Position numbers and translations under genes: made by a program
Notes under the pieces: model-generated
Told to the model about the DNA's origin: nothing
The model's input: the letters and a program-made list of their open reading frames with translations, nothing else
Databases searched by the model: none
Shown: one piece after another, positions 8,862 through 10,215 of the stretch
Position numbering within the stretch: the stretch's first letter is position 1
How the letters are laid out: each line of letters begins with the position of its first letter
IMG/VR virus record: IMGVR_UViG_2802429220_000013
Strand: one strand, 5' to 3'
Length of the DNA: 39,831 bases
Source: a virus
Taxonomy: Duplodnaviria; Heunggongvirae; Uroviricota; Caudoviricetes

Positions 8862-8890
8862 GAAAAGAAAACCCGGCATGGAGGCCGGGT
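8862..8890 (-). terminator. Rho-independent terminator ending the cI-proximal cargo transcript (tIMM-like)
   Basis: Hairpin acccggc-ctccat-gccgggt followed by TTTCTTTTCC on minus strand, just upstream of oL. Confidence 0.5.
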
Positions 8891-8896
8891 TGATGA

Positions 8897-9019
8897 TTAG
8901 CGGTGTGGCCTTGAGCGATAATGCTCACACACATGTTCAAGATTTCCATGCCTTATCCGTTCATAGGCATTCACATGAACTTCTCGATCGAATTGGTCAT
9001 TCAAATTGTATGTAGACAT
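8897..9019 (-). CDS. Possible 40-aa His/Cys-rich small protein
   Basis: ATG with weak GAGA upstream; stop abuts the terminator hairpin; MSTYNLNDQFDREVHVNAYERIRHGNLEHVCEHYRSRPHR. Weak support. Confidence 0.2.
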   Translation of the reverse strand: MSTYNLNDQFDREVHVNAYERIRHGNLEHVCEHYRSRPHR

Positions 9020-9192
9020 CTGTGTTTTCTCATATTGGCGGCAGCCCTACAACCGCTTGAAAAAATGTACCAGACGCGCTAAGGTTACATCGCAAATATT
9101 GTGTACCTTAACAAGGGCTCCTTTTGGAGGCTCTGGTTAAACAGCATCAATGTCGGACTGGGGAGTTGGACATTGTGCTGAATGCTTTTGCA

Positions 9193-9714
9193 TTATTGAG
9201 GCCGAACGTAAACCTTCAGAATTGAAGAGATGCGTTCGGCTTCTTCGTTTGTGATATCGTTAGGAATGCCTTTAATCGTTACTGTAACCCCTGATTCAGG
9301 TCGAAGAACTACTGGAAGATCATAGGTATGAAGTGCATTAGCCTTGCCTTCGACTTTTGTTGGTTCGCCAGTCAAATCTTTTTCCTCACTGGATTCTTTG
9401 TCAATCGGAGTGTATGGGATTTCTTCACCAGACTGGAAAGCTACAAACTTTTTGATTGCACTTTCCATGCGGCTTTTATATGCAGTAATGCTGCTGTCGC
9501 TAGGCTTCGGCTCAGTTGCGTTGATGTATCGCTCGGCAAGCTCATTCACATCAAGCTGAGTAACATCACCCATTTCCTCTTCTTGGACTACCGTTAAGAG
9601 GCGAGCGGATGAGTTTTTTAAATTTCGAGCGGTGGCCTCCTTCATTATGTTCAGCGACATAAGCTCTTCAAGGAAGTCCTTGAATGCCTGCACGCTAACG
9701 TTTGACTTTGCCAT
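9193..9714 (-). CDS. Hypothetical 173-aa acidic protein occupying the rexAB position
   Basis: Clean ORF in cI orientation between cI and oL; purine-rich RBS; upstream putative promoter (TTGCAT-17-TAAACT) overlapping palindromes; no TM segments; no family recognised. Confidence 0.6.
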   Translation of the reverse strand: MAKSNVSVQAFKDFLEELMSLNIMKEATARNLKNSSARLLTVVQEEEMGDVTQLDVNELAERYINATEPKPSDSSITAYKSRMESAIKKFVAFQSGEEIPYTPIDKESSEEKDLTGEPTKVEGKANALHTYDLPVVLRPESGVTVTIKGIPNDITNEEAERISSILKVYVRPQ

Positions 9715-10215
9715 TTGCTCTCTCTCTAAGTTATTGACTCAGATCGAGTTTATCCAGGAATTGATTTGCATGCAAGACTCAAGTCTTGAGAATTTCCGTT
9801 CAAGATCCACTCTCAATAAAAAAGGCCGCACCTCTGCGACCTTTCATCTCCTAAATCTCTTTTCTCTTACCTAAAGAAACAGCAGGCTGGGTCAGCCCTA
9901 ACAACTTCAAGTGCATCGGTCAGAGAAAGCTCCGTGCTATACAGGTGTTATTTCATATCTTTTTGCATCCAATAAATTTTCCATCTGTCCAGAGAGCGGA
10001 TGCACTTGATTCTTGTTGATGGCAGGACGTTTTTTCACCTGCCTCACCCTGCCATACAGGACGCTGCTCACCGATATCTATCGTCCGGTCATTGATGTTA
10101 TAGACAATATCCAGATCATTACGGATATACTCAGATGGCCTTATGCTTTCAATGAATAGATGAACTTCTTTTTGACCGCTTGATACTCATGGCCATTAAA
10201 CTCCATCTATCCTCT

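Follow-up and report, generated by a model that had tools for sequence, protein, structure and literature searches.

A possible toxin-antitoxin-like cassette with a structured RNA leader in place of rexAB in a P22-like phage genome with lambda immunity

The virus genome IMGVR_UViG_2802429220_000013 from IMG/VR (39,831 nucleotides; this whole stretch of DNA is hereafter the window) is of the P22-like podovirus type represented by Sf6, HK620 and CUS-3, and contains a lambda immunity region in which the rexA and rexB genes are replaced by a cassette of two genes separated by a structured RNA leader (Table 1). The first gene encodes a protein of 173 amino acids (aa) with a domain of the tyrosine-recombinase core-binding type, and the second one a protein of 40 aa. 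We tentatively propose, short of regarding it as probable, that this cassette is a toxin-antitoxin-like addiction or abortive-infection module, with a small effector gated by the RNA leader and the core-binding-fold protein. On the minus strand, the order of the elements is terminator, candidate promoter with a palindrome, gene 1 (173 aa), structured spacer, gene 2 (40 aa), terminator.

The limits of the cassette are set by two blocks of alignment to lambda. The left block (8558-8891, aligned to lambda 35496-35826; 89.6% identity) spans nutL, oL and pL through the t_imm hairpin, and the corresponding lambda segment ends at the rexB stop codon; the right block (10220-11389; 97.9% identity) covers cI, oR, cro and the start of cII. 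The 1328 bp between them (8892-10219) exactly replace lambda rexB-rexA, between the cI stop codon and the t_imm hairpin. The 237-aa open reading frame (ORF) at 10216-10929 on the minus strand is lambda cI with one substitution, and is followed by cro and cII. The original prediction, made from the sequence of the window, had described lambda-type cI, oR and oL around a different, foreign unit in the place of rexAB, and the alignment boundaries bear this out, lambda homology stopping at 8891 and resuming at 10220. The interval holds no homologue of RexA (279 aa) or of the four-helix membrane protein RexB; the two hydrophilic ORFs of 173 and 40 aa are found instead.

Table 1. Positions of the cassette elements and of the adjoining sequence features in the window
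Feature	Position	Strand	Description
DUF3024 pseudogene	9846-10206	(-)	81% identical in nucleotides to its intact counterpart (113 aa) in phage Stx2a_F451
Intrinsic terminator	9813-9845	(-)	GGTCGCA-GAGG-TGCGGCC + T6; conserved in Salmonella, Serratia, Proteus and 933W-type loci
Candidate promoter/operator region	9715-9788	(-)	Read from the sequence; position kept in Salmonella and Proteus
Palindrome	9773-9788		CAAGACT-NN-AGTCTTG; overlaps the candidate -35
tgcatgca	9768-9775
Candidate -35	9775-9770	(-)	TTGCAT; followed by a 17-nt spacer
Candidate -10	9752-9747	(-)	TAAACT
Ribosome-binding site of the 173-aa gene	within 9715-9788	(-)	GAGAGAGAG
173-aa protein gene (gene 1)	9193-9714	(-)	Hydrophilic, acidic, isoelectric point (pI) 4.85
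Structured intergenic RNA leader	9020-9192	(-)	Between the 173-aa gene and the 40-aa ORF
Leader P0	9194-9181
Leader P1	9180-9142
Leader P2	9137-9132 with 9074-9069
Leader pseudoknot	9119-9114 with 9048-9043
Leader P3	9109-9102 with 9089-9081
Leader UAGCG motif	9081-9077
Leader U-run	9065-9060
Leader P4	9056-9053 with 9041-9038
Leader Shine-Dalgarno	9031-9026
40-aa ORF (gene 2)	8897-9019	(-)	His/Cys-rich, pI ~7; phrog_21154 match at 5e-8
t_imm-type intrinsic terminator	8860-8891	(-)	Stem AACCCGGC/GCCGGGTT, then T-rich tail; closes the cassette

The cassette was originally thought to be unrecognised, and this did not hold. The segment 8776-10626 of the window is 99.6-99.9% identical to the corresponding DNA of VT2-Sakai/Sp5 and 40 or more other Shiga toxin (Stx) phages, with the pseudogene upstream of the cassette, the candidate promoter, both ORFs and the terminator all included, and the same block is found in the Morioka Stx1 and Stx2 phages, in 1717, 2851 and Nil2, and in the PA series. 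Altogether, the cassette DNA is present in at least 44 phage records and in 234 of the 5426 complete E. coli genomes, the copies in these genomes being at least 99% identical. The 173-aa ORF is ECs1184 (ECs_1184) of strain Sakai, that is, ORF23 of Sp5 and orf22 of VT2-Sakai, annotated as hypothetical; H0092 of the VT2-Sa record, also hypothetical, is identical to the 40-aa ORF, which has an annotated 41-aa homologue in Salmonella phage Oslo and lacks an annotation in RefSeq for strain Sakai. A 126-aa member of the 173-aa protein cluster, from strain EC4115, was considered as a truncation of gene 1 and rejected, the DNA being identical and only the start-codon call differing.

In Sp5/VT2-Sakai-type phages, the cassette lies behind the Sp5-type cI N-terminal domain and operators, whereas in the window it lies behind lambda cI, oR and oL. 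No record among the phage or complete E. coli collections covers 8100-11300 at 80% or more. Judging from these comparisons, what appears to be new in the window is the joining of the cassette to the operators and the cI N-terminal domain of lambda.

The two genes and the leader between them

The 173-aa acidic, non-membrane ORF, as it had been described, is present and hydrophilic. The protein comprises a tyrosine-recombinase core-binding-type (SAM-like) four-helix domain (residues 1-100), an acidic disordered linker (residues 103-128) and a beta-beta-alpha domain (residues 129-170). In the AlphaFold model based on a 144-sequence alignment (predicted local distance difference test score, pLDDT, of 90), four helices occupy residues 8-94, followed by the linker, which is modelled with low confidence, and by two strands and a helix (residues 130-168); sub-threshold matches to Phage_int_SAM were obtained for 14 of the 144 family members. 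The catalytic domain with the R-H-R-Y residues is absent, the protein ending at residue 173 and its C-terminal 45 aa having no Phage_integrase match. The model thus suggests that the N-terminal domain is a catalytically empty copy of the core-binding domain of tyrosine recombinases. The recombinase-derived repressors MrpR and SroF differ in this respect, given that they keep the whole recombinase fold, whereas the 173-aa protein has no catalytic domain and ends after the 45-aa beta-beta-alpha domain. A DNA-binding N-terminal domain, a disordered linker and a small C-terminal domain are the build of many type II antitoxins.

The C-terminal block carries the motif PxPxR...V.I.G[IL]P.D[IL]T..EAE.I, and profile searches with 48 C-terminal fragments against Pfam and the PDB sequences yielded chance-level matches only; the assignment of this domain, or of the small protein, as an integrase arm-binding or AP2-like domain found no support and was dropped. 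Scans of the 173-aa and 40-aa proteins against Pfam, NCBIfam and PADLOC returned nothing significant, and a Foldseek search of the PDB with a first, weaker model of the 173-aa protein gave no match at E <=0.001. Full-length similarity is detectable to phrog_2602, a family annotated as of unknown function. A profile search of 1.84 billion representative proteins recovered 649 clusters at E <=0.001, all of 160-240 aa and with the same two conserved blocks, which are distributed in prophages and integrative elements across Proteobacteria. Within the lambdoid-prophage subgroup, the linker (here taken as residues 101-128) is acidic, with a net charge of -3 to -8, whereas it is basic in 82% of the wider family, and the overall pI differs accordingly, with a median of ~9 in the wider family compared to ~4.9 in the lambdoid-prophage subgroup. 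In the literature on the neighbouring locus tags and on core-binding-domain antitoxins, nothing relevant was found.

The His/Cys-rich 40-aa ORF, mentioned as a possibility in the original prediction, is present, and comparative evidence indicates that it is a real and conserved partner gene of the cassette. A hidden Markov model (HMM) of the small protein has a match downstream of the 173-aa-family gene, on the same strand, in 51 of the 55 IMG/VR loci; among the other four, one locus is incomplete, and three contain a small ORF of a CxxC type. Adjacent, co-directional genes, as in type II toxin-antitoxin pairs, are thus kept in these viral loci and also, with exceptions, in distant ones. In loci L003, L012, L015, L020 and L022, the family gene likewise has a small ORF downstream in the same orientation, and the loci with a small ORF include those of Salmonella and Proteus, a marine element with an integrase (Int) and Rep_trans, another prophage arm, a metagenomic locus and a Yersinia-like prophage. 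Three types of the small ORF can be distinguished, namely, that of the window (phrog_21154), a basic type with the motif GYRW.CRYR...LDAH.YGY.W.F.VR (phrog_33859, E values down to 7e-33) and the CxxC type; in a MAFFT alignment, the window and basic types align plausibly. The profile search with the small protein recovered 81 clusters of 40-100 aa, none of them fused to a known domain.

The small ORF also occurs on its own. Stand-alone copies (4001-4153 in L025 and 4001-4132 in L027) lie in islands with AbiH, KAP-family nucleoside triphosphatases (NTPases), BrxR and JetD; upstream of each is ~0.7-0.9 kb without a called gene, and in L027 a 40-aa Cys-rich ORF overlaps the start codon.

The spacing between the two genes is near-constant, 150-175 nt, across the viral loci and the distant elements, and the single-sequence fold of the window leader has a z score of -3.6. 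For the commonest variant, RNAalifold analysis of 17 sequences yields a P1 hairpin after the stop codon, an enclosing P2/P2a helix, an inner hairpin P3, and a P4 hairpin by the Shine-Dalgarno sequence; to these helices, a pseudoknot that joins the P2 interior and the P4 loop was added. In this main variant, with the pseudoknot included, 91.6% of the cells are paired, compared to 40-46% with slid partners, and changes on both sides are seen in 21 of the 35 pairs, the observed values being reached by none of 500 shuffles. The pseudoknot core is paired at 95.6%, and all four of its pairs covary. The helices contain many G-U pairs, which favours sense-strand RNA. A covariance model of the main variant (R1) finds the element in 20 loci, at 57-161 bits.

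The R1 model finds no match, even with the filters off, in the variants of the window, Salmonella, L057, L015 and L061, and the membership of the window copy in the leader family therefore rests on a guided comparison of helices. The helices were located by a guided search, a weaker kind of evidence than an alignment made without bias. Each of the 12 variant classes allows P2, the pseudoknot, P3 and P4 to be placed at nearly identical positions, the distance between the P2 start and the AUG being 111-123 nt and a UAGCG-like motif lying between P3 and P2. The window type and the L057 type show compensatory differences in P2 and P3. When the pseudoknot was tested by shuffling, the combined p value was 7.5e-7, and that of the window copy by itself was 0.09. 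A U6 run comes after P2 in the window, and an outer helix pairs this U-run with the GAGAAA Shine-Dalgarno sequence (UUUUUCA with UGAGAAA); in several variants, likewise, a helix reaches into the Shine-Dalgarno region. A terminator as a universal feature of the leader was rejected, the U-run being present in the window and many other loci and absent in L015, L061 and L080. Rfam 15 has no family that matches the spacer at the gathering score, and only chance-level matches driven by the terminator were obtained; a known small RNA or riboswitch was accordingly rejected as the identity of the spacer. With the conserved small gene and a structured RNA between the two genes, the original description of the cassette as a single-protein factor is not supported.

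The terminal loop of the P1 hairpin (9142-9180) occurs in both orientations among close relatives with the stems unchanged (L050 and L065 compared to L068, L064 and L072). The window, for example, has CAACTCCCCAGTCC where Salmonella has AGACTGGGGAGTTG, and L065 has TTTGGCGA where L068 has TCGCCAAA, so that recurrent small inversions at an inverted repeat are indicated.

A role as a modulator of site-specific recombination or replication, in which the core-binding domain would compete with or assist a tyrosine recombinase at core sites or bind folded DNA, the hairpins acting as DNA, would account for the fold of the 173-aa protein, for the distant member that adjoins Rep_trans and integrase, and for the inverted repeat being active at the DNA level. 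We consider such a role very unlikely, given that the lambdoid cassette is far from int and att, that the frequent G-U pairs favour sense-strand RNA, and that the structure ends, at a fixed distance, at a Shine-Dalgarno sequence and AUG, as is typical of a translational leader.

Genomic slot and expression signals

In all lambdoid loci examined, the cassette is located between an S24-type repressor gene and N, on the same strand and always in the part of the slot nearest to N; it can be separated from cI by other cargo, a 345-aa gene or BstA. The content of the slot varies while the neighbours stay: lambda has rexAB, 933W-type phages have a DUF3024 gene, a RuvC-like gene and stk, and the Yersinia-like locus has BstA together with this module. 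A survey of related prophages had been suggested as a check, and the slot indeed differs among the lambda, 933W-type, Sp5-type, Salmonella and Yersinia-like loci. Lambda rexA-rexB, 933W stk, HK022 nun and bstA of BTP1-type phages all occupy this position, between the cI stop codon and t_imm on the strand of cI, where expression in the lysogen is expected, and from the position of the cassette, abortive infection or exclusion is a possible function. Compared to these genes, the cassette has no sequence or fold relation to any of them, includes no membrane protein, contains a structured RNA, and has its own candidate promoter behind a terminator, which would make it independent of read-through from pRM.

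Outside the lambdoid phages, the module is found in a prophage early-left arm in the opposite orientation and in an element beside Rep_trans and integrase at a tRNA gene. The variety of contexts implies a portable unit that is not tied to one immunity type. Further scans for diversity added one locus from genome contigs and seven from metagenomes; the broad alignment (A4) could not seed a locus search because of its excessive diversity.

The cassette has the architecture of a moron, with terminators (9845-9813 and 8891-8860) that insulate both sides and with presence or absence between conserved flanking genes. The original prediction had given it a promoter of its own and a terminator; a weak but conserved candidate promoter and both terminators were found. 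The downstream one, predicted as a hairpin just before oL, consists of a hairpin at 8870-8891 and a T-run to ~8860, and is a homologue of lambda t_imm. The upstream one, judging from its sequence and place, probably ends the cI (pRM) transcript ahead of the cassette promoter.

The palindrome, the tgcatgca sequence and the promoter hexamers noticed originally are present within a base or two of where they had been placed. The candidate promoter matches the sigma-70 consensus weakly (7 of 12 positions) and was not called by a promoter scanner, and the palindrome by itself is within chance expectation for a 40-kb window; both gain weight because they are conserved at the same place in the Salmonella and Proteus loci. 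The Proteus equivalent of the promoter, at the same position, is TTGCAA-17-TAGAAT, and other family members have different inverted repeats around a TTGATC -35 and a TAAACT or TAGACT -10. This pattern would fit a self-regulated promoter. Beyond chance, the 39.8-kb window contains no further copies of the palindrome, which makes a wider regulon unlikely.

Insertions of IS1203/IS629 between cI and the cassette were observed at three sites (9739-9747, ~9844 and ~10120) in 15 complete E. coli genomes, of O157, for example, L120.

Possible function and alternatives

In the systematic deletion of Sp5 genes in MG1655, in-frame deletions of ECs1184 and ECs1180 were not obtained, and the authors state that the deletion of ECs1184 "appears to be lethal to the host" (Mondal et al. 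2016, PMC5155283). Besides ECs1180, ECs1184 is thus the only early-region gene of Sp5 to have resisted deletion in that study; this is unusual for a dispensable exclusion gene and points to a toxin-antitoxin-like relation. In 644-PT8 and 180-PT54, IS1203 is inserted at 9739-9747, just downstream of the -10 hexamer, and cuts off both genes from the cassette promoter. Given that silencing of the whole operon by IS1203 is tolerated whereas deletion of gene 1 alone was not, a toxin-antitoxin-like relation fits better than an essential repressor.

That such a repressor is involved was the interpretation of the authors of the deletion study (PMC5155283): as an accessory regulator of lysogeny, the 173-aa protein would be a second repressor or an anti-induction factor that keeps the prophage silent. 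In lambdoid prophages, the gene is always in the neighbourhood of cI, and the protein is in principle comparable to MrpR of SPbeta and SroF of phi3T. However, the module rides with unrelated immunity types (lambda cI, Sp5 cI and several repressors of Salmonella, Serratia and Proteus) and also with non-lambdoid elements, namely, that with Int and Rep_trans and the early-left arm in the opposite orientation; the phage has no second copy of the palindrome; lambda and 933W-type phages maintain lysogeny without the module; and strains in which IS1203 uncouples the gene from its promoter are viable. Taken together, these observations make a lysogeny regulator unlikely.

Under the toxin-antitoxin-like reading, the cassette would be an autonomous moron that is expressed in the lysogen, insulated by a terminator on each side, and composed of three linked parts, namely, the 173-aa protein, a pseudoknotted leader RNA (~125 nt) with a long hairpin ahead of it, and the 40-aa protein. 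The small protein would be the putative effector, and its synthesis would be kept low by termination in the leader combined with sequestration of the Shine-Dalgarno sequence. The 173-aa protein would act as a regulator or neutraliser, repressing the promoter via the palindrome, binding the leader, binding the small protein, or combining these activities. Upon loss or titration of the 173-aa protein, through deletion of its gene or perhaps by an infecting phage, the effector would be released, and growth would stop. We infer the toxicity of the small protein, its neutralisation by the 173-aa protein, the binding to the operator and any anti-phage effect. The occurrence of BstA next to the module in the same slot and of stand-alone small ORFs in islands with AbiH, a KAP NTPase, BrxR and JetD was counted in favour of the module. 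Also counted in its favour are published expression data: a paper of 2025 (Nucleic Acids Research, NAR; PMC7618764) reports the recovery of ECs1184 by mass spectrometry in the RNA-associated proteome of Sakai cultures (false discovery rate, FDR, of 0.065) and mentions no mitomycin, which places the protein in uninduced lysogens, and it describes overexpression of ECs1184 from pBAD24 as tolerated.

Several observations weigh against this interpretation. The failure to delete ECs1184 is a negative result that could be technical, and the strains with IS1203 may harbour another copy of the module that is intact, or the genes may be transcribed from inside the insertion sequence (IS). The small protein resembles no known toxin, matching only PHROGs of unknown function, and neither protein has a match in PADLOC-DB 2.0 at E values up to 1. 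Because the genes are sometimes apart, a strict toxin-antitoxin pair is doubtful: Vibrio and a metagenomic lineage have the small ORF but no 173-aa gene next to it, and L018 and L021 have the 173-aa gene but no small ORF. The spacer of ~175 nt with a terminator is unlike the tight coupling that is usual in type II systems. Finally, the 173-aa protein of the window is acidic throughout, which is odd for a DNA binder, and ECs1184 is not a strong RNA binder in vivo, its polynucleotide kinase (PNK) signal being no better than that of green fluorescent protein (GFP) (PMC7618764).

A further possibility is a function in non-toxic superinfection exclusion or defence, in which the cassette would block incoming phages without a self-toxic component, one of its two proteins directly attacking foreign DNA or RNA. 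Exclusion genes reside in the cI-to-pL slot (lambda rexAB, the stk gene of 933W-type phages, BstA next to a family member, and also HK022 Nun), stand-alone small ORFs occur in defence islands, and the cassette has a moron architecture. The lack of a PADLOC match speaks against such a function, the non-deletable ECs1184 would be unexpected for a dispensable gene, and the small ORF is under elaborate translational control, which is suggestive of a product that has to be kept low; we therefore regard direct exclusion as a rather unlikely explanation.

Among known systems, the cassette shares with type II toxin-antitoxin loci two co-directional genes with the larger one, of a DNA-binding type, coming first, a palindrome at the promoter and, from the literature, a gene 1 that cannot be deleted alone. 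The differences from type II loci are the structured spacer of ~175 nt instead of an overlap, the partner of 40-58 aa that belongs to no toxin family, and the occasional separation of the genes. Type III systems are not matched either, given that the spacer is a single-copy fold without tandem repeats and that the 40-58-aa protein has no ToxN-type match. Type I leaders such as those of hok and tisB, and terminator-gated type III loci, resemble the cassette in the combination of a folded leader, long-range pairing, a hidden Shine-Dalgarno sequence and a very small ORF, and the window stem and U-run upstream of the small ORF add to the likeness. In contrast to hok and tisB, no antisense RNA was found for the cassette, and the small protein is hydrophilic rather than a membrane peptide.

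The immunity region of the Stx phages of E. coli O157:H7, both Stx1 and Stx2, harbours this cassette. If the cassette is an addiction or abortive-infection unit, it would help to explain the stable maintenance of Stx prophages and would represent an RNA-gated module of a new kind; otherwise, the micro-protein family and the RNA motif would still deserve curation as new objects. The RNA motif, the micro-protein family and the core-binding protein without a catalytic domain are undescribed as far as the searched libraries show. The more specific proposition, that the core-binding-fold protein, the pseudoknotted cis-RNA and the 40-58-aa micro-protein make up a three-part system described here for the first time, in which a recombinase-derived protein senses or controls the RNA gate of the effector, is one that we put forward with considerable doubt; such a system would constitute a new class among addiction or abortive-infection modules.

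Other features of the locus

The ~500 bp after the cI stop codon had been described as without a credible ORF. They are not empty, consisting mostly of a DUF3024 pseudogene, followed by the conserved terminator. The pseudogene is damaged by two single-base deletions, which cause frameshifts, and by one in-frame stop codon; the repaired translation matches PF11225 at 3.3e-25, and the actual reading frame is broken. In 933W-type Stx phages, an intact DUF3024 gene follows cI and precedes the RuvC-like gene and stk, and 9846-10206 is a remnant of the gene that follows cI in those phages.

The window as a whole is a mosaic in which a P22-like genome carries the Sp5 cassette together with cI, cro, oR and oL of lambda and an N gene that shares 93% identity with that of lambda. 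Within its first 25 kb, the best matches span 35-62% at ~97% identity. Directly downstream of N, where Sp5 has ECs1180, the window has a 227-aa ORF without known function (7509-8192, minus strand), and the only sequence that this region shares with Sp5 is 54 nt at the junction.

In Salmonella, Serratia and Yersinia-like loci, a conserved gene for 58-69 aa lies on the opposite strand between the cassette and N (L005 5861-6064, L009 5871-6047 and L022 4922-5131, all on the minus strand of the respective locus). It matches DUF2767 weakly, and the motif IEMI...VDLAVE.A.D.LR is shared among its copies; the sequence of the window at this place is of the lambda type. Two Rfam matches unconnected to the cassette were recorded in the surveyed loci, namely, sRNA-Xcc1 (83 bits) in the early-left arm of a Salmonella prophage (L005 8714-8797) and the PtaRNA1 antitoxin RNA (60 bits) in the Vibrio element (L025 5716-5790).

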